A DNA stretch of 64,000 nt from a virus. Taxonomy: Duplodnaviria; Caudoviricetes. The notes under the pieces are model-generated. The model was not told the DNA's origin. It saw only the letters and a program-made list of their open reading frames with translations, and made no database searches. Positions 41,987 to 57,476 of the stretch are shown in pieces. The position numbers and the translations under genes are program-made. Positions within the stretch are counted from its first letter, which is position 1. The number at the start of each line of letters is the position of its first letter. The stretch lies in the IMG/VR virus record IMGVR_UViG_3300006852_000005, positions 1 through 64,000 of that record; one strand, 5' to 3'.

Positions 41987-42841
41987 CTACGAACCCTCAA
42001 AGTCTGTGAACTTACGCCACAGATCTTCATCGTCGATGGTCTCTAGGTTTTTGTACACAACTGCCTTCTTAGCCTTGCTAAGTGATTTCCACTCATCACG
42101 AGTCATGCCGTGAAGAAAGAACTCGTCTGCTTCGTTCGCAAATTCCGAATCGGTCAGTTGGTTGAGGTAGTTAGCTTCCTCATCCGTGACGTACCCACGG
42201 TTCTCGGCGATGTCATCAAGCTCGCGCTCACGTGCGCGCTGCGGACCCTCGATCTTGCGACGTAGTTCGTTGTGTCGCGCGTTTTCCGCGTCGGTGAGGT
42301 AGCTGTTGTCGAGCTTGTTCTCAAGACGCTTGAACTCAGCGATATCAGAATCAGATGCATCTTTAGCAAGTGATTGAAGTCCCTTAAGCTCGTCGTGTTC
42401 TGCACTTGAGAGACCTTCATCACTCTCAAACTGACGCTCAAGCTGATGCTGACGAGCTACGTTATCTGCATGAGTCGGACCCTCATCTTCTGTGTCATAA
42501 GATGGCGACGGCGAACCATGAAGCTTCTTACGTAACGCGTTGTGACGCTCAGCTTCCTTACCACGAAGGTGACCTGTCTTACCCAGCTTGCTCTCAAGTT
42601 TGTCGTACTCTTCCTGCTCGGACGGCGAGAACCTGCTGACGGCCTTCTTGATGAGCTTACCGAGGCCACTACCCGGCTTGTCAGTCCAGCGTCCGTGGTC
42701 ATCACGTGGCTGTCGCTCATTAAAGTCGAACGCAGTCGTATCAAGACGGGCACGCAACGAGGCCACGATCGACGCCGGATCGCGCTGAATAGTCTTAGCA
42801 ATGCGAAGAGCTAACGCACGGCGCTGGTCTAATGTGGTCAA
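41987..42841 (-). CDS. Head-associated protein; protease-derived N-terminus plus helical repeats
   Basis: RRALALRIAKTIQRDPAS, QPRDDHGRW, repeated E..RHN.LR.K. Confidence 0.75.
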   Translation of the reverse strand: MTTLDQRRALALRIAKTIQRDPASIVASLRARLDTTAFDFNERQPRDDHGRWTDKPGSGLGKLIKKAVSRFSPSEQEEYDKLESKLGKTGHLRGKEAERHNALRKKLHGSPSPSYDTEDEGPTHADNVARQHQLERQFESDEGLSSAEHDELKGLQSLAKDASDSDIAEFKRLENKLDNSYLTDAENARHNELRRKIEGPQRARERELDDIAENRGYVTDEEANYLNQLTDSEFANEADEFFLHGMTRDEWKSLSKAKKAVVYKNLETIDDEDLWRKFTDFEGS

Positions 42842-42869
42842 CGTCGCGTCCCCGTCTCGAGTGTATTGG

Positions 42870-43025
42870 TTACCGGCTGGCGGAGGCGGTCACAGGCTCT
42901 TGAGCCTGCTGCACTTCTTGCGTGTGGTTGGCGTCATACGCCCGCTGACTCGCCAGCGGGTCACCCTGTGGCAGGTTAGCCGAGGTGACAGCTTCCTTAA
43001 CCTTGTTCCGGCAAGGGCAGCCCAT
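42870..43025 (-). CDS. Small MGCxC protein (51 aa; not in the ORF track)
   Basis: GAAGGAG RBS; MGCPCRNKVKE...EPVTASASR*. Confidence 0.7.
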   Translation of the reverse strand: MGCPCRNKVKEAVTSANLPQGDPLASQRAYDANHTQEVQQAQEPVTASASR

Positions 43026-43040
43026 AGCAGATCTCCTTCG

Positions 43041-45839
43041 TTAGTTACCCTGACTTGGGTGCTTACGATCATGGTCGGCGAGCAGCGCACGCAACTTCTT
43101 CAGCGCCGCGACCTCACCGGCGTACTTGTCCACGTCAGGCGCGGACGCAGCCTTGCTAACGGCGCGTCGCAACTCACCGATCTCCAGTCCGGTCAGGCCA
43201 TCTAGGTTCTCGAGGTTGGACGTCTTCATAAGATCGACGCCGCCACTTGAACCTCGGTGTAGTCGGTTACCGACCTCACCCGGCTTAGGTCGAGCCTTTG
43301 GCGGGTTAGTGTTCGGTGTCTCAGGATCGTAGTTCCACTTCTCGTACTTCTCCTTGAGAGCACGTAGGCTTTTCTCTTCACCTGGGTACCGAGGATCGAG
43401 CTGATCGGGCTGCAGGAAGTGGTTCACGCGATCGATCAACTCATTACGATCTGAGCCATCCAGCTTCATGAAGTCTTCGCGTGTCGTAATCTCCTGTCCA
43501 GCCTTGAACAGGTGAACGTTGCCACCCTCGTCGCGTGGTAACTGCTTGCTACCCGGACCCGACGTAGGCGATGACTTCTTATAGCCCTCAACGTCACTTA
43601 GGCGTCCACCCATCTTAGATGACCATGGCTTCGACTTATCACCACCATCAAGCACGCTTAGGATGTCATCGTCACTGAGATTCTTCCACTCAGCACGGTT
43701 ACTCCGAGCGCGCTTGAGGCCATCACGAATCTGGTCAGGAGAGCTCTTACCCGGGCTTAGACCCTGATCGGTGAACCACTGATTGAGGTGAGCCTTCTGC
43801 TCGAGGGAAAGAACCTTGCCAACAGCGCCACCGCCAGGGCCATCAGTCCACTGACCGTCGCCATCACGTGGCTGACGCTTCCAGTGATCGTCGTTGAACG
43901 CCATCATACCCGACGCACCACCGACCCACTTCCGCGGGATGAGTCGCGTCTGACCCAACGCCGCGGCGCGCTTCATGATGTGCGCACGGACGGCAGCGCG
44001 CTTACTCGGGTTGGCGCGGCCGTAGGCGTGGATCGCGTCGCGCAAGCTGGCGACGTCCGGGATCGGAAATGAGCCATCAGGCAACGCGTCACCCGAAGCG
44101 GCTAGCGCCTCACGCTCAGCCTCCGAGAACTGACGAAAGGCCATGCGCGCCTTGATCGCCGCAAGCTTAGATGCCGGATCACGTTGGATCGACTTGGCCA
44201 GACGAAGCGCCAGCGCGCGACGCTCATCAATGCTGGTGAACTCGGGTACGCCGTTCTCGTCGTGTACGAAGCGAACCGGCACCGCGGCAGCCACCAACTG
44301 TCCGTTCTCAACTCGCACCGAGGACGCGACACGTGCCATCGGGAAGCCTGGCACGGGAACGAGTAGTGCGGCGGTCAGTTCACGCCAGCCGGGCCGATCC
44401 TGCTGTGCACGCCAGTCACCCGATAGCTTGCAAGCCATCGCGCGCTGGATCATCGCAGGTGTGACGTCGGGTAACACGGCGCCGGCGATCCAGACGCCGT
44501 GCTTGTTCTCGCCGACGCAAGCCGTGGCGAACAGCGAGCACGAGTTGTCGTAGTGCTCCTGCGCCTGACCGGCTGTGATAGGTCGCTGAGTCGTCGCGTG
44601 GTCACAGTTCATGGTGATTGGGCCAGTTACTACACGGCCACCGTCAGAGACGATCGTCTCACCCGACATGAACCGCGAGTAGTCGACCTTACCCATCGGC
44701 GCGTAGACAGTCCGGTCGTGGAACGACCTGTGATGCACCTTGGCAGGTGCCAGGTAGCCGTATAGGCGACCGGAGTCTGTGATGGTCAGTGCGCCATACG
44801 GCGTCACGTCGGTCGGCTCATCGAACCACGCACGTGGCGGCGTGTCGGTGAACTCCATGACGTGGCCCGCGGCAACCAGCGCGTCCTCACGATCTTCAAG
44901 CTCGTCAGACGTGATTGGCTGCGCCATCACCTCGCGCATCGCCTCGAGGATCGGCATGTGAAACTCGACCAGCGCACCGGCCACGACGTCATCGTTCTTG
45001 ATCAGGCTGAGACGCGCCTCGGTGAACGCCGGAAACTCGACCATCGTCGTACCACGCACGCGACCCGCATTGTAGATCGTCAGCTGTGGCTTCTTAAACA
45101 TGCTGTTGATATCGACTGGTGCGCCAGGCTGCGCCGGTGTTTGTCCCGCTGTCGGCTGATCGTAGACGAACTCGACGTTGGCGTCCTTGACCGAGTCGAC
45201 GTCGACGCTGTTGCCGGACATCACGCCGGCCTTCATGCGACGTGCGACCTCCGCACCATCTGGGTTACCCAGGTCGATGAAGCCACGACCGCGGATGATC
45301 GCAACATCGGGACGTCCACCTGGGTCGGGCTCGCGCCAGACCTGTGTGACGCTGCCGACGCGAACTGACTCGTCGCCCTGGCCACCGTGGCTGGTCACAC
45401 GCTGCCACATGAGAGGCATGCCGTCGGCCGGCGTAAGGTCCCATGAGAGTGAGCCGATCTTGAACATCCGACCGTCGCCGGACTCGATGCCCTCGACAGT
45501 TAGGACGCCGTCCCACGGCGCGGTCTCGGTCTGCGCCTCCATGGTCACGGGCTCAGTGGCCTGGTAACCATCCATCTTGTCATCGGCCATACAGCTGCCA
45601 TCAGGCATCTTGTGATGACCCGGAGGGCAGTTTGACGGCGCGCTAGCCGCAGGAATCGTGTGCATCGGCTGCGCTGGCGCCGTAAAACCGCCACCGGCGG
45701 TGAGGTCTTCCTCACTCGCATAGAGCGCGCGCAGTTGACGAATGGCCTTCACACGTGAGTCGTGTCGTCCGGCAACCGAGTCATCGGCGTCCTTGACGAC
45801 CACGAAGTGGCCGTTGCGCTGCTCGATGTGCCACGGCAT
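43041..45839 (-). CDS. Capsid maturation protease polyprotein with DUF6582-like and cargo modules
   Basis: EGIESGDGR.F, PLMWQ, PAF.EAR, SGDWR, LPDGSFPI..AYGRA. Confidence 0.8.
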   Translation of the reverse strand: MPWHIEQRNGHFVVVKDADDSVAGRHDSRVKAIRQLRALYASEEDLTAGGGFTAPAQPMHTIPAASAPSNCPPGHHKMPDGSCMADDKMDGYQATEPVTMEAQTETAPWDGVLTVEGIESGDGRMFKIGSLSWDLTPADGMPLMWQRVTSHGGQGDESVRVGSVTQVWREPDPGGRPDVAIIRGRGFIDLGNPDGAEVARRMKAGVMSGNSVDVDSVKDANVEFVYDQPTAGQTPAQPGAPVDINSMFKKPQLTIYNAGRVRGTTMVEFPAFTEARLSLIKNDDVVAGALVEFHMPILEAMREVMAQPITSDELEDREDALVAAGHVMEFTDTPPRAWFDEPTDVTPYGALTITDSGRLYGYLAPAKVHHRSFHDRTVYAPMGKVDYSRFMSGETIVSDGGRVVTGPITMNCDHATTQRPITAGQAQEHYDNSCSLFATACVGENKHGVWIAGAVLPDVTPAMIQRAMACKLSGDWRAQQDRPGWRELTAALLVPVPGFPMARVASSVRVENGQLVAAAVPVRFVHDENGVPEFTSIDERRALALRLAKSIQRDPASKLAAIKARMAFRQFSEAEREALAASGDALPDGSFPIPDVASLRDAIHAYGRANPSKRAAVRAHIMKRAAALGQTRLIPRKWVGGASGMMAFNDDHWKRQPRDGDGQWTDGPGGGAVGKVLSLEQKAHLNQWFTDQGLSPGKSSPDQIRDGLKRARSNRAEWKNLSDDDILSVLDGGDKSKPWSSKMGGRLSDVEGYKKSSPTSGPGSKQLPRDEGGNVHLFKAGQEITTREDFMKLDGSDRNELIDRVNHFLQPDQLDPRYPGEEKSLRALKEKYEKWNYDPETPNTNPPKARPKPGEVGNRLHRGSSGGVDLMKTSNLENLDGLTGLEIGELRRAVSKAASAPDVDKYAGEVAALKKLRALLADHDRKHPSQGN

Positions 45840-45936
45840 GACCGCTACCTCCGAAGACGAACTTGGGTAGGTTGCGGCCCGCTAACCTCGATGATACGGT
45901 ATCACAACGTGCAGTGGTGTGCCACAGTTGTGTAAT

Positions 45937-46149
45937 CTACGCCTTAACTGTCTTCACGTAACCGTTCGACCAGCCATCGGCGAAGATGTCCAAGATCTCA
46001 GCATCAGGCGGTGGAGTCTCATAGGCACGCTTGAGTGAGTCAAAGATCTTCGTGGCCGACGGGTTGCTACCCTTAACGCTGTCACCATCCAGCGCCAGGG
46101 TGCCCAACACCTTACCTGACGAGACCGAGACTAGGTTCACGGTCATCAC
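45937..46149 (-). CDS. Small hypothetical protein
   Basis: AGGAGGTG RBS; ends GWSNGYV. Confidence 0.65.
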   Translation of the reverse strand: MMTVNLVSVSSGKVLGTLALDGDSVKGSNPSATKIFDSLKRAYETPPPDAEILDIFADGWSNGYVKTVKA

Positions 46150-46170
46150 ACACCTCCTGATGTCATTATA

Positions 46171-49100
46171 TCATGAGGCTTGCTGGGCCAAGGTCATGTC
46201 CATCTGCTCTTCGATGATGTCCAGCACACGGCGACTGATGCCGATCCAGCGTGGCTTGCGCATTTCATTGAACCGAGTCTCCATCGCATCCAGCGCCGAG
46301 CGCGCCTTATCGATGTCAGACCGGCGGAACATCTCATCGTATGGCACAAACGATGGCACGAACGGCGACTCGATCTGATCCATCCAACCCTTGATCAGCT
46401 TGTCATCAGGGATCTGCGTCGAGTCCGCCGGCTTTGCGGTCGACCACCCGAGACCGTGATCAATGCCTACCGGATCACCGTTCTTATCGATCATCCAGTT
46501 GTACTCGTGACGATCACCGTTCAATGTCATAAGATCGAGTAGTCCAAGCAGTCGACCTTTTCGACTCTTAAGAATCTTGTCGCGCTCGGGATCGGTGTTG
46601 TACTCGTAGTCATCACGGCCTTCGATGTCAAAGTGATCACCAGCCGGCGTGCCGTCAACGAGCTCCATGTGCACCGTTGTTTGGTTCACACGTTCGGCCG
46701 CAGGCACCGGTGCGCCGATCCGGATACCCAGTTCGGCGACGAGGTCCTCAGCGTCTGTGATCTCTTTCCCGGTGCTGGACCCCCAGCTCTTACTTTCCTT
46801 ACGAATGTACGAGCCATCTTTTGTGGTGACCTTACTGACGATCCCCACCTGACCACTCGAGATGTCGTCGATACTGACCTCGGTACCACTCGTAAGTTTC
46901 GTCAGTCGATCAAGTGACGATGCAAGTTCAGGTGATGATGTGGTGTCAGGTGGTGACGACACCTTCACACGCTTAGGTGCACCCTTGGCGACCGGTGCCG
47001 TAGCCTCAGGCACGGACAGTCGCTGCCACCTGACGTCCGCGCCGCCACCGTTGTCACCCGACAACCTAAGCCAGCTGAGGAGATACTCCTTCGAGTCGAA
47101 CGTCGAGTGTGCGTCATCCCCGTATTCGTTGTATGCGGAGATCGTACCGTCGCCGTTCGACACGAGATCATGTCGGCTACCGTGTGTGTCGACGCCGGAC
47201 AGGACGGTCGTACCATCCTTCGTGTTGCGCGCGTTCCAGACGTGATCGGCCAACTCCATGATGTGAAGGTTACCTGGGTTGGTGTCACGCCATCGACCGT
47301 GAGCGTCTCGTGGCTGATTGGGGTCAAAGTCAAAAGGGACGACATCACCGACCGCCGCCTCGGTCGGACGACCTGGGTGGCGACCCATGGTCGTTCCCGT
47401 GGCGAGCTGGTGGTAGTACTGACACAGGCCACCGGCGCGAACTCCGACGTACTTACGCATGTGCTTGATGCAGCGTGTGCCATCGCCCTCGGTGTTCCAC
47501 CGGATCTTAGCCGCACCAGGACCGTAGACCCAGTAGTCACGAAGCTGATGACCAGCCGAGCCAGGTGACTTGACACCACGCTCCTTAGCCCAGGCGATGT
47601 ACTCGTTTAGCCAGCCTTGGACGTCCGGATGATCAAGATCGAAAACCGACTCAAATTCGACCGTATAGCTACCAACGGCCGGCGTGCGTTCGGGCGCCTG
47701 GGGAGGTTCAGAGGTCTCAAGTTCAGACCTATCTGTACCAGTTTGTCCAGCTCCAAGGGGGAAGTCATAGTTCTCGCCTGCGAAGGCCACGCGGATGCGA
47801 TCAAATGTGATCGGACCGACCTGATCCACCAACGGAGTAAGATCGGTAGCGGTCTCGGTCAACGTGATGTGCGGGATCCACGTCTTGAATGAGTGTGCCG
47901 ACTGATCGATGACGTCGTGCACCTGCTCACAGATGAACTCGTATGACTCCGTCAGCTCATCACCCTGCACGAGCAGCACCGTGCACTCTTCACGATCCGG
48001 CTGAGCGTCACCTGGGTTAAAGAGTGCGAGCCCAAAACCTTCGGCGTCGATGACATCCAGCGCCGATGCGGCAGCCTCGATCCGACTAAGGATCTGCTCC
48101 TCGTTTTCCTCGGTGATGTCCGCGGCCTCGCCTAAGTACTTGATCGTACAGTGAAGCTCGCCGGCTGGAAGACCACCATGCACAGCGAGACGACCCGCGT
48201 CATCCTCAGACGGGACCAATGCGATCATCGCACCGGTATGTACTACAGCTGCAGCTGTAAGATCTTCAACGTTATTCATTACTTCTAACTCGATCACCGG
48301 AGTATCAGAGTTAGGCAGCTTACTGATGCCCAAGACACGCATGCGCTGATCCCGACCAAGAACTACCTCTTGCGCCTTGATGTAGTGATCATTAGCCTCG
48401 GGATCGTCAGTGTTCGTGGGGAACTTTACCGCGTGCGTCCCCGCTGGTACTGAAATCTTAAAGACCACAGCACCTGGTTTCGTCGCGTAGATCTGGGTCG
48501 CGACGTCACCATTGGCGCTTGTTGACGTGTATGCCTTGTCAGATAAGACGTCGCCAACCTTGAGATTCTTATATTGATCTTGTACACCTTCAAGACCACG
48601 CCACACGGTAATCGGTTTAGTGACCGTTCCGCGTGCGACGACATCGTCCAGTGCCGCAACCTGCGTCTCAGCGATCTGAGCATCTGACACGCGATCAAGT
48701 GCCGGTGGTCCGTTGCGTAGACGATCGTTTAACGCCTTGAAATTCATGCGATCTGGGTTGTAGCCGTTACCCGTGTAGGCGTTAAGTTCCTTGATATCGG
48801 TCGGTTCGAGTGGATGCGTGATCGCATCCAGCGCATCGGTACCGGTTAGACCTTCAGTCTTGGATAGAGCAGCCTCGTCGTGACCTACGATCTCCGGAGT
48901 GACGTCATCGATCGTGCTAGGCACGTCAGCCTCAGTCAACTGTGGACGAGCGTTCTGATGCGTCTCAGGAACGTTACCGATGAACGTACCGGCGCGTGGC
49001 TCGACTTCAGGTGTCTGCCAGTCACCCGTCTTGACCTTGTCGTAGGCCTGCTTCTTGGTGAGAGGCTTACCCTTTCCCCACGAGTCACCCTTACGCTTCT

Positions 49101-49596
49101 CGTGGAGAAACTTCTTGGTGGACTGATCCCATCGCATACGCTCGTTATCGCGCTGAGCGACGACCTCGCCGTCGGGAATCGTGGCACGGTGGATCGCCTT
49201 CGTCGGGGCGAACTTCTTCAACGCCTTCACGACACCGGAGATACCACCACCTGGTGTCTCGGTCCATTGACCATCAGCATCGCGAAGTTCATGTTTCCAC
49301 TGATCACCACCGGCTGCGGCCGTCATTGCCGCGGTGATCGAGCTCTCACCACTGAGGAACGCGTCCACCTCGGCGTCTGTGAAGCCACCGTCATCGAACT
49401 CCTCATGAGCGTTGGCCTCATCCTCCTGTGCCTGACGCTCCTCCGGAGTAAGGGTGTGCGAGATGTCGCGGAAGGGATCATCCAGCGGCAACTCATCGGT
49501 CATCAGGTAGTGCTGAGCCTCCGCGAGCGTCATACCACGAGGCATCGCAGCGATCTCAGAGAGGTCGAACGTCTCATCAACGTGGAAGTTACTCAT
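46171..49596 (-). CDS. Multidomain head protein: VIP2-like ADP-ribosyltransferase, 2H phosphoesterase, PI3/4K-HipA-like kinase
   Basis: YT..N..LR, VWRG, YTSTS, AQEVVL; LHCT and PHIT; NGDRHEYN...IDHG. Confidence 0.85.
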   Translation of the reverse strand: MSNFHVDETFDLSEIAAMPRGMTLAEAQHYLMTDELPLDDPFRDISHTLTPEERQAQEDEANAHEEFDDGGFTDAEVDAFLSGESSITAAMTAAAGGDQWKHELRDADGQWTETPGGGISGVVKALKKFAPTKAIHRATIPDGEVVAQRDNERMRWDQSTKKFLHEKRKGDSWGKGKPLTKKQAYDKVKTGDWQTPEVEPRAGTFIGNVPETHQNARPQLTEADVPSTIDDVTPEIVGHDEAALSKTEGLTGTDALDAITHPLEPTDIKELNAYTGNGYNPDRMNFKALNDRLRNGPPALDRVSDAQIAETQVAALDDVVARGTVTKPITVWRGLEGVQDQYKNLKVGDVLSDKAYTSTSANGDVATQIYATKPGAVVFKISVPAGTHAVKFPTNTDDPEANDHYIKAQEVVLGRDQRMRVLGISKLPNSDTPVIELEVMNNVEDLTAAAVVHTGAMIALVPSEDDAGRLAVHGGLPAGELHCTIKYLGEAADITEENEEQILSRIEAAASALDVIDAEGFGLALFNPGDAQPDREECTVLLVQGDELTESYEFICEQVHDVIDQSAHSFKTWIPHITLTETATDLTPLVDQVGPITFDRIRVAFAGENYDFPLGAGQTGTDRSELETSEPPQAPERTPAVGSYTVEFESVFDLDHPDVQGWLNEYIAWAKERGVKSPGSAGHQLRDYWVYGPGAAKIRWNTEGDGTRCIKHMRKYVGVRAGGLCQYYHQLATGTTMGRHPGRPTEAAVGDVVPFDFDPNQPRDAHGRWRDTNPGNLHIMELADHVWNARNTKDGTTVLSGVDTHGSRHDLVSNGDGTISAYNEYGDDAHSTFDSKEYLLSWLRLSGDNGGGADVRWQRLSVPEATAPVAKGAPKRVKVSSPPDTTSSPELASSLDRLTKLTSGTEVSIDDISSGQVGIVSKVTTKDGSYIRKESKSWGSSTGKEITDAEDLVAELGIRIGAPVPAAERVNQTTVHMELVDGTPAGDHFDIEGRDDYEYNTDPERDKILKSRKGRLLGLLDLMTLNGDRHEYNWMIDKNGDPVGIDHGLGWSTAKPADSTQIPDDKLIKGWMDQIESPFVPSFVPYDEMFRRSDIDKARSALDAMETRFNEMRKPRWIGISRRVLDIIEEQMDMTLAQQAS

Positions 49597-52500
49597 CGCC
49601 ACATCATCCCTGCGTCGACAGCCGCAATGATCTGACTCTCGTCATCCGGCTTAGGTACGATGCGAACACGAACCGTAGCACCACTACCGTTAGGTGTCAC
49701 GCTAAGAATGTGGTAGTAGAGACCGGCGGCGAGCAGCATCTCATTCTCGCCCTTGTGGAGTGAGATCGGCTTGGCCCAGTACATCGGCGTCCCAGGTGGC
49801 GCCTCGATCTCAATCTTGACGTGACCACCGAACGCCGAGTGCCCACCGGTTGACGTCGAACCAAAGCCACCCATCCAGCGCGTCTGGCCGACCATCTTCG
49901 CCAGGCTAGCGTACGACGTAGCCTTGAACGCGTCGAAACCAACACCACGGTGGAGCAACACCGGCTCGATCGAGGGGATCATCGCCGCCTGAGCGTTGTT
50001 CATACTTTGCTCATTCGAGCTGGAGATGCCCTGCACCTTGCCATACAGGAAGGCGTTGATGGAGTGGTAGATACCGCCGGTGTAGTTGGTAATGCCACTC
50101 TTAGCGGAGCCTGAAGGTTCCTGCCCGGTCGCCTTCTTAAAGGCCGCCAGCGCCTTGTTAAACCACGAGGTAGCCGAGCTGGTGTCCAAAACATTGTACG
50201 AATACTTGTTCGACTCCTCAAGCGTCGGTAGGTTACCCTCAACGCCTGCCATGAACTTCGGCGGCGGTGGCTTCGGGATCGGCAGGTTGTGCAGGATCGC
50301 GTAGCCGGCGGGTGTCTGCAGCCAGTCGGTGATCTTCTTCTCGAAGAGGTGATCGTCAGGCTTCGAGACCTTGGCAGCGCCGACCTCATCGATAACGCGC
50401 AGCGTCTGCATCTTCGTGAGGTTGTTGTTGTCCGCGATCGTGATCAACGCGGCCCAGATGTCCTGGCTTGAGCTCTTGAGGTACGTCGCCGGCTGGGACT
50501 TGAACGCCTGGTAGACCTGCTTCTTCTGCGCATCACTTAGGTGGGAGATGTCCCCGCCACCCATGTCGATCGTCCCACCACCGGGCACCGTGACGACGCT
50601 CGCTGAGTGCGACGTCTTAACCGTTGGGACCGTAGCCTCCGGCTTGTACCAGCCGTAAACGGGTGCTGAGTTAGCGAGCGTCGCTACCTTGTACGACTCG
50701 GTATTCGTCGTCGTCCACGTGTTGTTGGCTGGGCTCCAGGTCTGAAGCTGGAACTCAGACCCAGGCTTGTGATAGACGATTCGATGTTGACCATTAGACG
50801 AGTACGCGAGAACGGTCGTCGCCTTATACTGACTCTTCTTAGAGAGCGGACCCCACGCTGCGACCTTCGGACCCTTGGGTACGTCGGTTCCATCGGGAAG
50901 CGTGATCGTTCCGAAGATGCCGGTTGGCTTCGGTGGCGGCGGTGGCGGTGGCGGCGGTGGCGGCGCCGGAGGTGTCGTTGGATATTTCAACGCCACAGGT
51001 GCTGGCTTTGGTGGCTTAGGATGAGCCACCGGCGTCGTCGCGTCGTACCACTTCGTCTTCACAACCTTAGCCAGCGACGCCAACTTGTACTGCTCGCCGT
51101 CGACGTAGATCCACTTCTTGTTGGTGTCATCCCACTTGTGTAGGTAGAAGAACCCGTAGTTGGCCGACAGCCTGTACTTGCCATCTTCCGAGTACGCCAG
51201 AGGCTGGCCGCTGTTCTTCTTGGCGGCCAGGTCCTTCCACACCTTAACCTCGGGACCCTTGTCCACCGTCGTACCGTCGGCTAGTGTCAGCTTCGACTTC
51301 GGTGTTGATGAGGCAGCAGGCGCGATCTTTGTCGGACTTAGGTCAATCGCGTAGTTCCAATAGTCCGAGTGGTCTTGCGCCAGCTTCTTGGGATGGTCAC
51401 CCTCGGCGAAGAGCTCGTACTTGTTCGTGGCCGGATTGTACTTGCGAAGCTGGTATCCACCGAAGTTGGAGACCAAGATAAGTTCTTTGCTAGGTGACAC
51501 CGCGTGTAGCTTGTACCCGGCGTCTGGGTTGACGTCACCGATCGACTCCCAGCCATCCATTGGGATCGTGTAACCGGTCGACACTGGTGTTCCGTCCTTG
51601 AGTGGGAACACGTTAGGTGTCGTGCTTAGTCCGGTGAACTTATCCGTGATCGGTGGCGGAGAGTTTGGTGACTGTTCCGCGTGAACCCAACTCTTGAAGA
51701 AACCCACCTTGTTAGTTGCTGTGAGGTACGGATCCTTACCCGAGCCAGCAAGTTCATACTTATGCTTGTCAGGATTCCACGTTGAGACAAAGAACCAACC
51801 ATCGGTTGAAAACAGTTGGTGTTGAAGATCTGTCGTTACGGCGTGCAGCTTATGTCCAGGAACAACGCTCTTATCCTTAAGAATCTGCTGCCAGTCTTCA
51901 GGCTGAATATCCTCCGCAAGTAGGACCTCGGTGCCGTCCGGCAGTGTGTCGATCGGTGACGCGATCGACACGTCCTTAACCTCACCCTCGGTCGACACCG
52001 GTGCGAGTGTCCACTTCGTGTTCTTGCCGAGGACGTTGTTGTCCATGAAGTTTGTGAGTTGTTCCTCGGTGGTGAACTCGTATGACGTAGGCACATCTGT
52101 GCCTTCATCATTGTGGTAGAACACCTGCAGCTTCTTAAAGCCTTCACCATCACCATCTTGCTTGATCTTATAGGTGAAGGTTCCACCTTCCTTGACGTAC
52201 GTTCCGGTGGCAATGATCTTCGCGTACGTAGCCGAACCAAACGATGGTGTCGCGTTCCAGACCTCGTCTGCGGTGGCATTACGTGAACCAACGGTCGGCG
52301 ACAACGTCGGATCACTACCGCCCGGCGTACCCGCGTACCACTTATCGGTCATGTTCCACGTGTCGACCGGGAAGTGATTTAGCAACGACGACTGTGGTTC
52401 CGCCGCGACGATCTCACTCGTCCAGTTCGGGCTGTCGGCGGTGCCGTCGTTGGTCTCGAGAACAAACTTGCTGTCATCGTCATACGTGACTCGCCACTTA

Positions 52501-55500
52501 CCGTCCTCACGCGTCGCGACGACGTCACCGGGAACCCACGGCAACTTTTCTAGATCCGCAAACGACGTGACCACCTGCGGTACATGCACACCAGGTGTTG
52601 GCGTCGGTGCTGGCTTAGCGCCAGACAGTGATGCGTAGACCGGAGCTCCGGTCGGCGTCGGGTATATCTTCCACGAGTCGCCGTTGTCGTCGTTCATCTT
52701 AAGGTAGGCGTCGACCTCGTGTGGCTCAACCTTGACGAGCGCCACACCGTTCTTAAACACAAACATGTGTTCGCCAAGCTGACCCTTTTCAACGGTAAGA
52801 AGATCACCGTTCTCAAGATTCTTGTTGGCGATCACCGAGTAGCTCTTCACATCGGGATCGGCCAGGGCCTTCATGATCAGTGAGGTGCCGGGATGCTCGT
52901 CAGACGACGGCGGCATCACGGTCGGCTTCTTGACGTCAGGATGCGCGATGACGTAGTCGAGACCCTTCTTCGTCTTCAGCCACTTCTTAAGCTTGTTCGT
53001 GTACGAGCTGTTCGTCGGCGCGCTGGGCGGCAACCCAGTGTCCAGCGCCGCTAGGATCTGCATGTTCGTCAGGTGTTCGTAACCGACACCCGCATCTGAG
53101 GTCTTGAACGACTGCAGTGCATCCCAGATCGCCTCAGGCTTGTTGTGCCACTTCGCACCGTTGGCATTGAAGTACGTCTTAAGAACACCGATCTGCGCGG
53201 GCGACATGCTGGTGATGTCAGCACCTGGGTTCGGCGCAGGCTTCGGTGGATCGACGTTGACGAGATGCCACTTTGACGTACTTGTGTGATCTTGCGCCGT
53301 GAACGCTAAGTCATTTGCCGGGATGTTTGTCTCAAGGGTCATCCAGTCACTGGGGTTGTTCGTTGATTGCTTCTGGATGCGAAACTTCTTCATGTCTGCG
53401 TTAGGTAGTGATGTACCACCCGCAATGATGCGGAAGTTACCCTCAGGTGTCGTCACCGTCGCAATGACTTGGTTCTTGACGAACGTAGCCATAGACTCAA
53501 ATGTGAACTTTTGCTTCCACGCTTCCGAGGTAAACGTTGTCTCGTTGTCACCACCGTAGGCACCGGTTGACACAGCACCGTCAATCGCCGCATTGTGCTG
53601 TGAGATGTTCGCCGGCACACCAAAGTGCGGAACGGCTACGTCACCCTTAAGCCAACTCTTAACACTCTCGTTTGAGTGATACTTGGTGACATCAGCGAGA
53701 TCATCTTCCCACTCGGCGTCAGACGCGCCTTCACCCGGTAGACCCAGCTTGCTGACCACCGTCCACTTACCGGTGCTGTTCTGAATCTTACTGAGCTCGA
53801 TCTGACCGGTGCTGATGTTGTACGTCATCGCCAGGCTACCGTCTGTCGTCACTCCGATCGTCGTACCGGGTGCGTTAAACAGTCCGGCATCCACCATGTC
53901 GTCAACGCTCAGCTCATCCTCAGGCTCCCACCATGTATCTGAACCGACATTACCGTCAAGATCTTGATTGAACAACGAGCTAGGATTCCACGCAATGTCA
54001 GCACCACCAGCTTTGTCGATCCACCACTGGTTAAACGCATCATTATCATGAAACTGAACAGATGACTTACCATCACCGGTCTCTTCGTACAATGCAAGCG
54101 GATAGTCAAACGATGTCTTACGAATCGTAACCGGGTTACCATTCTTATCATTTCCAGCGATAAGAATATTACCCGGCTTTGCGGTCTTAGCTGCGTCAAG
54201 AACATTCGTGCCAAGTTCAGCGTGCTTGGTGTCGACCGGATACGCCATCTTGACGGCAGATGTTCCCAACTTAGCCTGACGCTGTGCGGTCGTCTTCTTG
54301 TAAAGATCGCTAAAGTCCTTTTCCAGCGTATCACGACGCTGCATGATCGCCTTAAGGAACGTCTCAGGATCGTTACCGTAGGCGCTTAACCATCCGTTCT
54401 TGGCGGCACCCTGCGCGTACGAACCGAACATATCCCGGATGTCATCGTCAGAGAGCTCGGTCGCGTCAAAGATAACCTGCGCGATCGCATGATCTTCATC
54501 CGGATCGTGCATCTGGATGTTCTCGCCGTTGGCATATGCCTTCCACATGTCCGGGTACGTGTGCTTGTTTGGACTGAGTGGGCTCCACGGCTTGTAGTCC
54601 GGATCAAGCTTGTCCTTGGCGTAGAACCTGAAGGCGTGACCCTTGTCGATGGACGAGATGTGACCGTTTGGTAGTCTGATGAACTGACCGGAGTGTGCGT
54701 CGTTGTTGCCCAGGAGCCAGTCGAGGACTTGCTCCTTCTGCATGTCACGCACATCTTCTTCAGACAAGTTCGTCGGCTTAAACGAACCGTTCGGGAACGC
54801 GTCCTGGGCGTCGAACATCGCCTGCACGGCGGCCGGCTTGCCATCGACGTCCATCACCCACGTCTTGGGACCCTTAAGCCCGATGGCTGCCTGCAGCTTG
54901 TTCGCCGCGACGTCGAGCTCAAGCACAGGATCATCGTTAGGGTTCTTCTTACGACGCACCAACCAGCGCTGACCCTTGTCATCGATGTAGATCGGCGACG
55001 CGGAGACTCCCGTGGCCGCGTTCCCGATCTTCTTCATCTTCGCGGGATCAGGCTTGTGTGCGTTCATCACCGCCACGATGGAACCCGGCACACCAGGCGG
55101 CGATGAATACGACTTAATGACAACCGGCGGTGAAACCGGTGGTGGAGCTGTTGACTTCGGTGCGGATGCAGGCTGACGCCAGTCCCACTTCGCGTCCTTC
55201 GCCATCTTATACGTGTCGGCCTTGGTGTCATACGAGACCGAGTACCACGCATCAGTCACAGTGCTCTTCTGCTGCAGCTGGTACTTCTTCATCCCCGCAC
55301 TCCAGCGGAGTCGATGAGTGCCATCAGCACTCACGGCGACGACCGTACCATCCTGGTGTTGCTTGTGAATGGTCGCAGGAATGAACTTCTTAGTTGACGG
55401 CGCAGATGATGTGACCTTCGCTGGCTCAACGTTTTCAAGAGGCGTTGGCACCGTACTTGGAATGGTAGGCACCGCGTTGGGTACGCCCGGTGGTGAATCC

Positions 55501-57476
55501 AGCTTCATGTTCTCCGGCACCGGCGTGGTAATGGTCGTGTCGGAGTCGGGACCCTTGTTCTCAAAGCCAGAGATCTTATGCTTAAGCGGCTCAGACATCG
55601 GCGACGAGCTGATGCCATGCGTCAGCTTGGAGATCCAGCCCTGCTGCTTATCCGTCAGGTTGTCCCAGGTCTCCTGGGAATCGATCGCGCCGACGGCATC
55701 CTTCAGCTGCGTGAATGTTGGGCTGTTCATCTTAAAGAAGTCAGCAAGTGGACCCTTACTGATGAACCGCCCGTCCTTGCCGCGCGGATGCTGCTCAGGC
55801 TGCCACTTACGGTGAACGCCACTCGCCGTCAGGGCCATGTCCATGGCGAACTTGTACGACTGCGACTTAGGTGGCTTCGGCGGATCAGCCGGGATGATGT
55901 CATTGGTATCGGTCGTCGAGTCACCGGTGTCGAAGATGTCGAAGATCTTCGGAATGCTGTCGGCCAGCGCCGGGTGGAAGTCACCATCACGCAACATTGT
56001 GGCGATCTGCTGCCTCGTCAGCCACAACGCGTTCATAACCTCGGCGTGATCGACCTCAGGCTCAAACTGACGTGGCGCCTCAGCGGCGATGTTCGTGTAC
56101 TTCCACGGTTCAGGCTGACCCTCAATAGGCTGAACGGTTACGTGCGTACCCAGGTGCTTAACGTCATCCAGGTACTTCTGCGAGACGTGCAGTTCCTCAT
56201 ACGTCTCGCGAGCCGCACCCTGGGCCGGAGTCTCATACTGATCCATCGCACCGCCGGGAAGCTGCCACTTCCCGGTGTTGGAGACGGCCTTACCACGCTG
56301 GATGAAGAGGAAGCTGTCTTCACCGTCCTCGTTTGGCGCCTTGATCATGACACCCGAGGCGCCGTACGTTCCCCAGATGCGCCACTGCTGGTTCTTAACG
56401 AGGTACTTGTCGCCCGACTTACCACGCAGTGCCGCAGGTAGGATCACGAACTTGTTGGGATCCTTGGCGATCTCGGCGATCTGCTCAGGTGTGCGACCAC
56501 CGTACTTGCGCTCAATGCGAGCCTGCTCAGCCTTCTTCATGGCTGCAAGCTGCTCAGGTGTCGGTGGCGCCTTCTTCTGCTTAGGTACCTTAAAACCACC
56601 AAGCAGCTTTGAGATCTCGACGTCACTCAAGTCATCGATGAACTCACCACTATGAGGATCCCGCGGATGATCTTTAGGATCCCAGTTAGGCTTACCCTTT
56701 GCCCACGGGTATCCCGCGGACATCATGACGAGCTCTTCCTCATCATCCGCGGTGACGTCAGGGAACAACTCGTATGTCACAGAGCAGCGACAGTTGATCG
56801 TCTCGTCCAGTGGTCCACGAGGATCTCCTGGGTACTGCATCTGTGAACGACCAACCGTGAACGGCTCGGAGATCTTTTGTGTCTGACCGTCAGCCTCATC
56901 ATGTGTTGGCCGTGTGTGCGAGTCGTTGGTCGCCAGCCAAGACTTCTTGCCGTCGGGATCCACCATCGCAGCCTGAGCATATGAGCCAGCTTCTAGCGCA
57001 GCGTGGATCTCGGTACGTGCGATCGTCAGTGCCTTGGAGTCTGAGACGTTACCGACGTGCTTGATGCGCGCGGCGATCTGCTTGACGTCCTCATCTAGCG
57101 CGTAACCCTTGATGAGCTGCGTGTGGATCGCGTCCCAGACGTCCTGGCTTAGATCTTGAAACCGGTTGGCGGCCAGCTGCAGGTGTGTCTCCACGAAGTC
57201 TTCATTTAGGAGGAACGCCTTATCCCCCAAACCAAGGTCCTGACGCACCCTCTCAGCACCGTCGAGTACCTGCATGCCCAGATATCCCAGCAAGGGTCCG
57301 TCCACCTGCTGAGCCCACAGGGAGGGCAGCTCATTGAGGTCTGACATCGATACCCGCGTGGTCTGCTTACCGACCAGCGCGCGCATCACGGCACGCCACG
57401 CCTTCTGGATCAACGCAGCTAGTGTGTCAGCGCGCTCATCCTTCTCGTCGCGCGACCACCCCCGTGTGTCCGCCAC
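49593..57476 (-). CDS. MuF minor head protein fused to Nudix, kinase-like, repeat and VIP2-like ADP-ribosyltransferase domains
   Basis: IARTE, TRPTH, PGDP, INCRC; PGGAMDQYETPAQGAARETYEE; NNDAHSGQ...IDKG; HRG, STS, ENE. Confidence 0.9.
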   Translation of the reverse strand: MADTRGWSRDEKDERADTLAALIQKAWRAVMRALVGKQTTRVSMSDLNELPSLWAQQVDGPLLGYLGMQVLDGAERVRQDLGLGDKAFLLNEDFVETHLQLAANRFQDLSQDVWDAIHTQLIKGYALDEDVKQIAARIKHVGNVSDSKALTIARTEIHAALEAGSYAQAAMVDPDGKKSWLATNDSHTRPTHDEADGQTQKISEPFTVGRSQMQYPGDPRGPLDETINCRCSVTYELFPDVTADDEEELVMMSAGYPWAKGKPNWDPKDHPRDPHSGEFIDDLSDVEISKLLGGFKVPKQKKAPPTPEQLAAMKKAEQARIERKYGGRTPEQIAEIAKDPNKFVILPAALRGKSGDKYLVKNQQWRIWGTYGASGVMIKAPNEDGEDSFLFIQRGKAVSNTGKWQLPGGAMDQYETPAQGAARETYEELHVSQKYLDDVKHLGTHVTVQPIEGQPEPWKYTNIAAEAPRQFEPEVDHAEVMNALWLTRQQIATMLRDGDFHPALADSIPKIFDIFDTGDSTTDTNDIIPADPPKPPKSQSYKFAMDMALTASGVHRKWQPEQHPRGKDGRFISKGPLADFFKMNSPTFTQLKDAVGAIDSQETWDNLTDKQQGWISKLTHGISSSPMSEPLKHKISGFENKGPDSDTTITTPVPENMKLDSPPGVPNAVPTIPSTVPTPLENVEPAKVTSSAPSTKKFIPATIHKQHQDGTVVAVSADGTHRLRWSAGMKKYQLQQKSTVTDAWYSVSYDTKADTYKMAKDAKWDWRQPASAPKSTAPPPVSPPVVIKSYSSPPGVPGSIVAVMNAHKPDPAKMKKIGNAATGVSASPIYIDDKGQRWLVRRKKNPNDDPVLELDVAANKLQAAIGLKGPKTWVMDVDGKPAAVQAMFDAQDAFPNGSFKPTNLSEEDVRDMQKEQVLDWLLGNNDAHSGQFIRLPNGHISSIDKGHAFRFYAKDKLDPDYKPWSPLSPNKHTYPDMWKAYANGENIQMHDPDEDHAIAQVIFDATELSDDDIRDMFGSYAQGAAKNGWLSAYGNDPETFLKAIMQRRDTLEKDFSDLYKKTTAQRQAKLGTSAVKMAYPVDTKHAELGTNVLDAAKTAKPGNILIAGNDKNGNPVTIRKTSFDYPLALYEETGDGKSSVQFHDNDAFNQWWIDKAGGADIAWNPSSLFNQDLDGNVGSDTWWEPEDELSVDDMVDAGLFNAPGTTIGVTTDGSLAMTYNISTGQIELSKIQNSTGKWTVVSKLGLPGEGASDAEWEDDLADVTKYHSNESVKSWLKGDVAVPHFGVPANISQHNAAIDGAVSTGAYGGDNETTFTSEAWKQKFTFESMATFVKNQVIATVTTPEGNFRIIAGGTSLPNADMKKFRIQKQSTNNPSDWMTLETNIPANDLAFTAQDHTSTSKWHLVNVDPPKPAPNPGADITSMSPAQIGVLKTYFNANGAKWHNKPEAIWDALQSFKTSDAGVGYEHLTNMQILAALDTGLPPSAPTNSSYTNKLKKWLKTKKGLDYVIAHPDVKKPTVMPPSSDEHPGTSLIMKALADPDVKSYSVIANKNLENGDLLTVEKGQLGEHMFVFKNGVALVKVEPHEVDAYLKMNDDNGDSWKIYPTPTGAPVYASLSGAKPAPTPTPGVHVPQVVTSFADLEKLPWVPGDVVATREDGKWRVTYDDDSKFVLETNDGTADSPNWTSEIVAAEPQSSLLNHFPVDTWNMTDKWYAGTPGGSDPTLSPTVGSRNATADEVWNATPSFGSATYAKIIATGTYVKEGGTFTYKIKQDGDGEGFKKLQVFYHNDEGTDVPTSYEFTTEEQLTNFMDNNVLGKNTKWTLAPVSTEGEVKDVSIASPIDTLPDGTEVLLAEDIQPEDWQQILKDKSVVPGHKLHAVTTDLQHQLFSTDGWFFVSTWNPDKHKYELAGSGKDPYLTATNKVGFFKSWVHAEQSPNSPPPITDKFTGLSTTPNVFPLKDGTPVSTGYTIPMDGWESIGDVNPDAGYKLHAVSPSKELILVSNFGGYQLRKYNPATNKYELFAEGDHPKKLAQDHSDYWNYAIDLSPTKIAPAASSTPKSKLTLADGTTVDKGPEVKVWKDLAAKKNSGQPLAYSEDGKYRLSANYGFFYLHKWDDTNKKWIYVDGEQYKLASLAKVVKTKWYDATTPVAHPKPPKPAPVALKYPTTPPAPPPPPPPPPPPKPTGIFGTITLPDGTDVPKGPKVAAWGPLSKKSQYKATTVLAYSSNGQHRIVYHKPGSEFQLQTWSPANNTWTTTNTESYKVATLANSAPVYGWYKPEATVPTVKTSHSASVVTVPGGGTIDMGGGDISHLSDAQKKQVYQAFKSQPATYLKSSSQDIWAALITIADNNNLTKMQTLRVIDEVGAAKVSKPDDHLFEKKITDWLQTPAGYAILHNLPIPKPPPPKFMAGVEGNLPTLEESNKYSYNVLDTSSATSWFNKALAAFKKATGQEPSGSAKSGITNYTGGIYHSINAFLYGKVQGISSSNEQSMNNAQAAMIPSIEPVLLHRGVGFDAFKATSYASLAKMVGQTRWMGGFGSTSTGGHSAFGGHVKIEIEAPPGTPMYWAKPISLHKGENEMLLAAGLYYHILSVTPNGSGATVRVRIVPKPDDESQIIAAVDAGMMWR

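Follow-up and report, generated by a model that had tools for sequence, protein, structure and literature searches.

Six copies of one peptide in four head genes

The window analysed here is the first 64,000 nucleotides (64 kb) of IMG/VR virus record IMGVR_UViG_3300006852_000005 (Duplodnaviria; Caudoviricetes), a single-contig genome of 82,754 bp; its gene content is that of a phage. On the minus strand lies a block of head genes, in which four consecutive genes encode two large polyvalent proteins (P0001 and P0002), a prohead protease protein (P0003) and a small protein in the scaffold slot (P0004). These genes contain six copies of a peptide of about 20–33 amino acids (aa), hereafter the tag (Table 1). 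The six matches look like copies of a widespread, previously unnamed leader or junction peptide of proteins carried inside the phage capsid.

The original prediction, made from the DNA letters, had quoted six short peptides in these genes. All six are present on the minus strand, and the positions then given cover only a core of 8–10 aa, (P/L)R..G.(W/F). The form common to the six reaches well beyond that expression: an aromatic residue, three or four variable positions, then (Q/H)PRDxxG(R/Q)(W/F)T(D/E)xPGG. Copy 1 is degenerate, with an extra residue between Arg and Gly (HPRDPHSGEF) and Glu where the others have Arg, Lys or Gln. A profile hidden Markov model (HMM) built from the six copies scores them at 47.7–55.7 bits, and the next best of the genome's 1617 six-frame open reading frames (ORFs) of 30 aa or more reaches 8.9. 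A second, independent HMM was trained on 606 instances in proteins of other organisms and recovers five of the six at 35.7–12.9 bits (next best 4.7). Confinement of the tag to head-region genes, which had been proposed as a check, is what the HMM search found: the 82.7-kb genome holds no copies beyond the four head genes.

Could these peptides resemble one another by chance or low complexity, with no common function? A loose regular expression does match 12 six-frame positions in the window, six of them the real copies and six unrelated. Counter to this, a gap of about 40 bits separates the six copies from the rest of the genome, an HMM from other organisms' proteins recovers five of them, and 701 protein clusters carry the same extended consensus (see below). 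A strict core expression gives 7 matches, compared with a mean of 1.35 and a maximum of 5 in 200 shuffles. We regard chance similarity as refuted, with a vanishingly small probability. The six copies use different codons (DNA identity 59% per column), and the conservation is therefore at the level of the peptide and not of a DNA repeat; a repeat or recombination site within the genome was rejected as the source of the similarity on these grounds.

Table 1. Genes, tags and junction helix of the head-gene block, with positions in the window
Feature	Position	Strand	Remarks
Portal protein gene, 562 aa	57483..59171	-	phrog_776, E 1.1e-107; upstream limit of the head-cargo block
P0001, giant polyvalent protein, 2627 aa	49593..57476	-	Pfam and PHROG head morphogenesis matches
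Tag copy 1 (WAKGKPNWDPKDHPRDPHSGEFIDD...)	56604..56705	-	P0001; six-copy HMM 47.7 bits; missed by independent HMM
Tag copy 2 (RKWQPEQHPRGKDGRFISKGP)	55728..55826	-	P0001, between Nudix and long C-terminal part; 50.3 bits; independent HMM 19.6
P0002, second polyvalent protein, 1143 aa	46171..49602	-	Pfam matches; phrog_2659, phrog_755, phrog_6439
Tag copy 3 (GGDQWKHELRDADGQWTETPGGG)	49228..49326	-	P0002; 51.4 bits; independent HMM 12.9; Leu for the usual Pro before Arg
Tag copy 4 (PFDFDPNQPRDAHGRWRDTNPG)	47254..47352	-	P0002, just before kinase-like C-terminal part; 55.0 bits; independent HMM 27.0
P0003, prohead (capsid maturation) protease protein, 932 aa	43041..45839	-	PHROG head maturation protease families
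Junction helix after protease domain, P0003 residues 534-577 (...DERRALALRLAKSIQRDPASKLAAIKARMAF...)	44109..44240	-	Repeated at the start of P0004
Tag copy 5 (MMAFNDDHWKRQPRDGDGQWTDGPGGG)	43812..43910	-	P0003; 52.2 bits; independent HMM 17.0
P0004, small protein, 284 aa	41987..42841	-	In the scaffold slot, immediately before the capsid gene
Tag copy 6 (TTAFDFNERQPRDDHGRWTDKPGSG)	42650..42748	-	P0004; 55.7 bits; independent HMM 35.7; nearest the general consensus
Major capsid protein, listed at 570 aa (the database copy begins 2 residues further on)	40172..41884	-	phrog_777 major head protein, E 3e-133; bounds the block downstream
phrog_779 protein, 311 aa	39186-40121		Directly after the capsid gene; major tail protein also in the block

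In the window proteins the tags fall between Pfam or PHROG domain matches, never within them. P0001 runs from a Phage_Mu_F (MuF) domain (residues 117–233, E 3.3e-15) through a tag (~258–291), a NUDIX domain (382–495, 4.3e-12) and a second tag (~551–583) to a stretch of repeats and unassigned domains (about 1850 aa) and an ADP-ribosyltransferase (ART) domain (2436–2597, ADPrib_exo_Tox, 1.4e-10). Its first tag lies about 35 aa beyond the MuF domain, an arrangement shared with other proteins in which a tag follows MuF; after the second, about 2060 aa with several domains and repeats follow without a further tag. Within this part, residues ~690–2490 (window 50000–55400) hold many copies of a small module (DGTVVAVSADGTHRLRWSAGMKKYQLQQK, LAYSEDGKYRLSANYGFFYLHKWDDTNKKW, LAYSSNGQHRIVYHKPGSEFQLQTWSPANNTW) without a family match, divided by Pro-rich linkers, one of which has 11 consecutive Pro. 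A module resembling these repeats also sits behind tag copy 3 in P0002 (BLASTP, 29% identity over 90 aa, E 0.002).

P0002, whose gene begins within the last 10 nt of that of P0001, has an acidic N-terminus, a tag (~93–125), an ART domain (261–429, ADPrib_exo_Tox, 7.4e-10), a 2H/RNA-ligase-like domain (450–630), a phrog_6439 match (678–744), a second tag (~751–783) and a PI3/4-kinase-like C-terminus (PI3_PI4_kinase, 1.4e-4; 22.3 bits, sub-threshold against the Pfam cut-off of 27.1). The kinase first placed in P0001 has no family match, and that of P0002 falls below the cut-off.

In P0003 the protease region (~90–530) is followed by a junction helix, a DGSFPIP domain, a tag (~644–676) and a C-terminal extension of 255 aa. 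The protein matches four PHROG families named 'head maturation protease', phrog_859 (2.2e-70), phrog_18402 (2.8e-26), phrog_21470 and phrog_29860; Pfam gives no match. We found 424 homologues. Distant ones (~28–35% identity, tblastn) lie in 860 actinophage records, where they are annotated as capsid maturation protease, and much nearer ones (40–90% identity) are metagenomic. In the homologues inspected the junction helix stands after the protease core whether a tag is present or not. At the place of the tag after this helix, the homologues P0213, P0237, P0254 and P0259 carry the variants FHGTHNQDDHGHW, MHGTHNQKSHGSW, FHGTHDQSTHG and FHPGQHRDSHGRW, the first three of which lack the otherwise constant Arg.

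P0004 consists of the same helix (55% identity to that of P0003 over 44 aa, BLASTP E 2e-11), a tag (~32–64) and a charged helical remainder. It has no Pfam, PHROG or NCBIfam match, and an ESM Atlas look-up gave no usable lead (scores 0.75–0.76). The metagenomic protein P0108 (342 aa) matches most of P0004 and then diverges completely in the C-terminal part (the side of window 41987–42200), which resembles a payload swap behind a constant head of helix and tag.

Several neighbouring features complete the picture of the locus. For the major capsid protein, 912 homologues score E ≤ 1e-20. In its residues 1–150 (window 41430–41884) a helical N-terminal part gives way to an Ala/Pro-rich stretch (…APAPAATPEAAPAVAQVPAPAMASQGG…); this region resembles a delta or scaffold-like domain and might be cut away on maturation. 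The gene at the position of the phrog_779 gene in actinophages GodPhather and NHagos is annotated 'major capsid pentamer protein', a match of position only. An endonuclease VII/HNH-like gene (phrog_2633, E 4.9e-30) lies at 60940–61377, upstream of the portal region. The phage collection holds no near DNA match to this phage.

The tag in other phages and prophages

Searched against 1.84 billion cluster representatives, the six-copy profile matches 701 proteins at E ≤ 1e-3, of which 93 reach 1e-10 and 3 reach 1e-30. The best 150 of the 701 are for the most part very long proteins, the longest of 7334 aa, and contain 616 matching stretches, up to 19 per protein by profile search and up to 15 by local re-scan. 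This set of 150 includes P0004 of the present phage and one false positive, a protein with a DGQWIDD repeat. The consensus of 606 instances reads [K/A][K/W/F][F/Y/D][E/D/S/N][P/E][D/N][Q/H]-P(93%)-R-D(88%)-[E/D]-x-G-[R/K/Q]-[W/F]-T(65%)-[D/S/E]-G-G-G, or in short ~FDPNQPRDxxGRWT followed by glycines; Arg, Gly and the aromatic residue are fixed in it because the alignment was anchored on R-x3-G-x-[F/W/Y]. Two of the proteins, P0005 (5313 aa; 15 tags by local scan, 17 stretches by profile search) and P0007 (7334 aa; 13 and 19), are encoded on one 409,570-bp NCBI contig.

The tag corresponds to no Pfam family in the four window proteins, in 15 representatives scanned singly or in 50 scanned together (10 overlapping), has no NCBIfam match, and finds 0 PDB sequences at E ≤ 10. 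For ten tag-bearing proteins, a look-up of their clusters returned no informative names. A tblastn search of phages with a 33-aa tag gave no match at E ≤ 1 because the query was too short; a search with the 7-tag protein P0023 gave four records, which were set aside since they matched via a domain rather than the tags.

The position of the tag is asymmetric. In 64 of 149 proteins the Arg of the first tag is no more than 50 residues from the N-terminus, but in only 2 does the last tag come as near to the C-terminus. The Arg falls within the first 30 residues in 35 of the 149, and some proteins essentially start with the tag, the invariant Arg being at residue 11–15. Where one protein holds several tags, their spacing (median 265 aa, minimum 74 aa) is domain-sized. 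From these figures, the proposed order of tag followed by payload, with tags at the heads of modules, holds in this phage and elsewhere. A tag stands either at the N-terminus of a separate head-module protein or between two modules of a polyvalent one. Nested genes starting before each tag were considered and rejected: a Shine-Dalgarno-like sequence in front of an upstream ATG is present at only one of the six tags (P0001 residue 251/252). Elsewhere, Met is not enriched upstream (0.93x, 605 tags).

The 17 residues upstream of the 605 tags look helical, with Leu, Arg and Ala raised and Gly lowered, and positions +8 to +20 downstream are enriched in Gly (2.65x) and Ser (1.79x), as in a flexible linker. 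In the protease lineage a basic amphipathic stretch (GKLIKKAV, VIKKIGRS, VVKKVLKK) lies downstream of the tags. What precedes a tag is often a component of the head. The C-terminal Cys motif of MuF stands upstream of 45 of the 605, which explains an enrichment of Cys 25–75 residues upstream, and 15 of 33 MuF matches have a tag within 80 aa downstream, the arrangement seen in P0001. Other tags follow a Mu-type portal (P0080), the protease-terminal helix (here and in the protease lineage) or a coiled-coil N-domain.

Genomic context was surveyed with a degenerate DNA pattern for the tag core in IMG/VR, which gave at least 120 loci, all with a tag by HMM; they comprise 162 tagged ORFs and 213 tags, at a G+C content of 0.37–0.71. 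The neighbour tallies are family counts from a greedy ORF caller, in which one ORF may count for several families, and were made without matched control loci. Among 138 same-strand upstream ORFs the top PHROG families are large terminase (16, 16, 16, 13 and 13), followed by capsid, portal and MuF-type head morphogenesis. The 107 downstream ORFs are led by major head protein (23 and 17) and head maturation protease phrog_80 (19), with the capsid–protease fusion phrog_4523 (12) and portal (8, 7, 6 and 5). An unnamed companion, phrog_11321, accounts for 15 of the 107 ORFs just downstream of tagged genes (loci L006–L125) and could be a partner or scaffold. In bacterial genome contigs, 82 of 120 pattern matches carry the tag. 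The hosts are mainly Hyphomicrobiales and other Alphaproteobacteria, with Christensenella, Ruminococcus, Peptococcaceae, Chloroflexi and others. The bacterial loci are prophage-like, again with terminase, capsid and protease genes as neighbours (first 141 of 263 ORFs). Placement in head regions extends beyond this genome, to viral and prophage-like bacterial loci flanked by terminase, portal, protease and capsid genes.

The proteins behind the tag are diverse. Tagged ORFs mostly lack a family: the 85 of 162 that were scanned (100–640 aa) match 20 PHROG families, none of which occurs in more than 6 ORFs. Among 50 of the 150 representatives (387–1183 aa), Pfam recognises ART-PolyVal in 7, MuF in 5, GNAT in 5 and ADPrib_exo_Tox in 4, as well as Mu portal, topoisomerase IB, zeta toxin, PI3/4-kinase-like, 2H, LPD3 and LPD13 domains. 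That the tag precedes variable enzymatic domains was a proposed check, and such domains (ART, GNAT, 2H, kinase, topoisomerase IB and LPD types) were recognised. No relaxase, ArdC or type IV secretion system family appears among the 25 listed of 33 families in this general scan, in which no search was aimed at conjugative elements. A contig of a Christensenella metagenome-assembled genome (MAG; L154:351-7584) has four small tag-headed ORFs, two of which carry LPD3 and LPD13, interleaved with untagged ones. In a Hyphomicrobiales MAG (L156), three of four small tagged ORFs share a coiled-coil N-terminal region and the tag and then diverge, as in a polymorphic-toxin array.

Cleavage sites, module boundaries and patchy distribution

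The original prediction placed each tag a few residues after a small-residue Ala site, at which proteolysis would expose it. The strings quoted (MMSAG, LTASG, MTAAAG, TEAAV, MMAF and TTAF) are all present. As a general grammar the idea fails: upstream of the 605 tags Ala is at 1.16x and Gly at 0.79x background, with no small-residue pattern, and a general site of this kind was rejected. A post-hoc pattern, [MT][MTSA]A[GSFAV], occurs at four of the six sites here (nominal P ~2e-6, for a pattern defined on the same sites) and at 14 of 577 tags elsewhere, against a background of 1.0%. Seven head proteins contain eight occurrences, including one at the ART/2H boundary of P0002. There, VEDLTAAAVVHT at 48243–48275 (residues ~445–455) falls exactly between the ART domain (261–429) and the 2H-like domain (from ~450), and may be a candidate processing site without a tag. 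The Ala site is at best specific to this phage, and we keep it as a lead only. Proteins that begin with the tag need no upstream cleavage.

These observations bear on whether the tag is purely a mark for polyprotein processing, which the prohead protease or some other peptidase would dock on or recognise in order to cut polyvalent proteins into single domains, with MuF, portal and protease helix doing the loading. One tag per module boundary, at domain-sized spacing and adjoining a flexible linker, is what such a mark would look like, and tags come after carriers that are already head components. Protease genes are common neighbours (19 of the 107 downstream ORFs match phrog_80 and 12 match phrog_4523), the post-hoc Ala pattern precedes four of the six tags here and recurs at the ART/2H boundary, and the best fold match of the P0003 protease region is a herpesvirus protease, albeit a weak one (Foldseek, Epstein-Barr virus protease 1o6e_A, E 0.11, non-significant; probability 0.51). 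Counter to this, the 35 proteins with the Arg in their first 30 residues have almost nothing to cut off, the 605 tags show no conserved scissile motif, and the Ala pattern was derived from the very sites that it describes and is nearly absent elsewhere (14/577). Tagged phages also have differing protease families, and near relatives of P0003 mostly lack the tag. We consider a role restricted to processing unlikely.

An AlphaFold2 (AF2) model of P0003 residues 60–720 has a mean predicted local distance difference test score (pLDDT) of 77.9; the protease region is confident and the tag region is below 50. Within tag copy 5 the model draws a low-confidence, hairpin-like two-residue bridge between R658 and W664. 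With such scores and this bridge, the tag behaves as a flexible, perhaps hairpin-forming peptide. A complex prediction of the capsid protein with P0004 residues 1–100 scored 0.00 against a mark of 0.32, with controls not run, and carries no weight either way.

The distribution of the tag among relatives of its carriers is patchy. Of 121 close homologues of the protease protein, P0003 included, 12 have it, and many of the tag-less ones carry MuF, 2H, ART or peptidoglycan-binding fusions. One of 52 MuF homologues of 181–578 aa has it: P0158, the nearest, in the order MuF, tag, ART. Head regions of five annotated actinophage relatives (A3Wally, GodPhather, DSL-LC01, Nicole72 and NHagos) have no clear tag. 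Weak tag-like cores do occur in actinophage relatives (QPRDYNGQF, QVRDGAGQF and NQPRDAKGQF), the first and last in the scaffold slot, the gene position of P0004, where relatives have a QPRDxxGQF that resembles the tag. The tag is optional and marks only a subset of polyvalent proteins.

Patchiness of this kind, across unrelated phages, would also suit a cassette boundary, that is, a conserved hinge that delimits exchangeable payloads and helps recombination to swap them, with at most a structural role and no partner. Polymorphic toxins have comparable pre-toxin motifs, such as VENN in CdiA and the end of the Rhs core. Bacterial neighbouring paralogues that share an N-terminal region and the tag and then diverge (L156 and L196) point the same way, as does the C-terminal divergence of P0108 from P0004. 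Among 994 intra-protein tag pairs, 60 are similar upstream and dissimilar downstream, compared with 26 in the reverse sense. However, about 90% of these pairs share neither flank, and the differing codons of the six copies leave little DNA homology within the genome. The near-invariant Pro and Asp, and an Arg, Gly and aromatic residue that return in almost every stretch matched by the profile, across phyla and G+C contents, indicate selection on a specific interaction or structure at the protein level. We hold a boundary role by itself to be improbable.

A predicted leader for capsid cargo

We favour, with moderate confidence, a reading in which the tag is a leader comparable to the capsid targeting sequence (CTS) of phage T4, common to cargo, the protease extension and the scaffold-slot protein, that holds modules in the prohead core and marks the division points of long proteins. 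We chose it because it accounts for most of the observations. The tag would be a small, hairpin-like handle on a flexible tether and would work like the T4 CTS, keeping cargo modules in the prohead core alongside protease and scaffold-like proteins. The maturation protease would cut long proteins beside the handle into single modules, and the freed modules could then leave with the DNA. Targeting, cleavage and ejection by the tag are predicted functions. The sequence features that point to such a mechanism are the six copies in four adjacent head genes, the module-heading position, the carrier parts that are built into the head, and the head-module context.

In T4, the CTS is described as a propeptide at the N-terminus, which directs proteins to the core and is then removed by gp21, and has also been proposed for the protease itself (PMC9026906). 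According to passages of the same article, the CTS of IPI–III has 10 aa, occurs in T4-like phages only, ends in a gp21 site and is portable to foreign proteins (PMC9026906). Like the CTS as described there, the tag is a short peptide N-terminal to diverse cargo and common to several head proteins, possibly including the protease. Unlike it, the tag is longer, brings its own Gly linker, is repeated up to 19 times per polypeptide and spans many lineages and phyla; there is no sequence similarity between the two.

Several points weigh against this reading. Modules that are fused to MuF or to a portal should need no targeting signal of their own. As described above, few close homologues of the protease protein and a single MuF homologue carry the tag, and it is missing from the 2808-aa ORF vb_24B_48 of phage phi24B, which we equate by size with gp47, the virion-associated protein of the preprint cited below. 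No conserved cleavage motif flanks the 605 tags, and in the AF2 model the tag is not placed against the protease domain in cis. Finally, the tag occurs in phages with differing capsid, protease and portal families, over the whole G+C range of 0.37–0.71 and in several bacterial phyla, which is hard to reconcile with a binding partner specific to one phage. This portability, the same peptide across differing structural families and missing from near relatives, is the main difficulty, both for a CTS-like leader and for a pure protease site. It leaves room for a generic or self-associating partner, for a role in ejection or in the host, or for a cassette boundary.

The first of these options would make the tag a portable, phage-independent signal for loading and release: carriers would be recruited into HK97-fold proheads via a generic partner or by association of tag with tag, released when maturation cleavage occurs, and ejected along with the DNA. 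We put this forward tentatively, as a minority possibility. If it is true, phages could build and reshuffle injected arsenals by adding cassettes of tag and payload.

Alternatively, the tag may act during or after ejection, as a leader that threads modules into the portal or tail channel or as a handle for a host chaperone, unfoldase or degradation adaptor. Its strong conservation across unrelated structural proteins and host phyla would fit a universal partner, and its N-terminal position on a flexible tether would suit threading or capture. Cuts before the Phe of MMAF and TTAF, as proposed, would leave an N-terminal Phe, which would act as a bacterial N-degron. Counter to this, the tag is also found in the protease extension and the scaffold-slot protein. 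In HK97- and T4-type assembly the protease and scaffold parts are degraded or expelled before DNA packaging and are not injected. The tag also lacks a recognisable host-binding motif. We judge a role confined to ejection or the host to be rather improbable.

The system appears to be a member of the phage polyvalent-protein and MuF-toxin kind. Polyvalent proteins combine ART, 2H, GNAT, kinase, MuF, portal and LPD domains, have genes beside virion late genes and, according to prediction, are carried in the head, injected and processed by proteolysis (Iyer, Burroughs, Anand, de Souza & Aravind 2017, PMC5512222). P0001 (MuF, Nudix and ART) and P0002 (ART, 2H-like and a weak kinase-like domain) likewise hold at least two unrelated effector or enzyme domains, and their genes lie between those for the portal and the protease and capsid; most tagged proteins fit this description too. 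Here, unlike in the proteins described, a peptide of about 20 aa punctuates the modules. The text passages of PMC5512222 assign processing to zincin-like metallopeptidase domains and name no conserved junction peptide, for which the supplementary alignments might show a motif; we detected no metallopeptidase domain in the four window proteins.

MuF polymorphic toxins have an N-terminal MuF head domain and a variable C-terminal toxin, for example ART (Jamet et al. 2017, PMC5576092; Bxa, PMC11699363). P0001, with MuF at 117–233 and a C-terminal ADPrib_exo_Tox domain, and P0158 share this layout, but P0001 is far larger and has several payloads. The gene after P0001 is that of the 1143-aa P0002 and not a small immunity-like ORF, though no search was aimed at immunity genes. 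Passages of PMC5576092 and PMC11699363 mention no motif, linker or cleavage between MuF and toxin; the supplementary alignments of PMC5576092 might show a motif.

The cargo-loading peptides of encapsulins offer a looser parallel, being usually C-terminal and of a different consensus. As with these and with the capsid-binding ends of scaffolds, a short peptide on a flexible linker would bring cargo into an HK97-fold shell, a likeness in which binding of the tag to the capsid is hypothetical. Literature on polyvalent proteins, MuF, T4 and SPN3US, retrieved by searches for motif strings and for capsid targeting or MuF cleavage, does not describe the tag in the portions consulted. The tag is the new element: real, widespread and testable, with a function that we infer.

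Capsid-packaged polyvalent proteins and MuF toxins are already known, and how they are loaded, cut and released is the question that the tag addresses. One such protein, gp47 of phi24B, is an experimentally packaged polyvalent ejection protein, given as 2811 aa and as >3,000 aa in a preprint that asks how gp47 is organised in the capsid (10.64898/2026.04.10.717836, in the passages available). Microbacterium EK-cluster phages and Burro have genes of more than 4,400 aa, termed 'likely processed, and virion associated' in PMC7302621. A leader at module boundaries predicts where long head proteins divide, and lets cargo genes without a known family be recognised from sequence. Arg, Gly and Trp/Phe are three residues of the tag open to mutation. 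If the tag is sufficient for loading, it would provide a simple route to have phages bring proteins of choice into laboratory bacteria.

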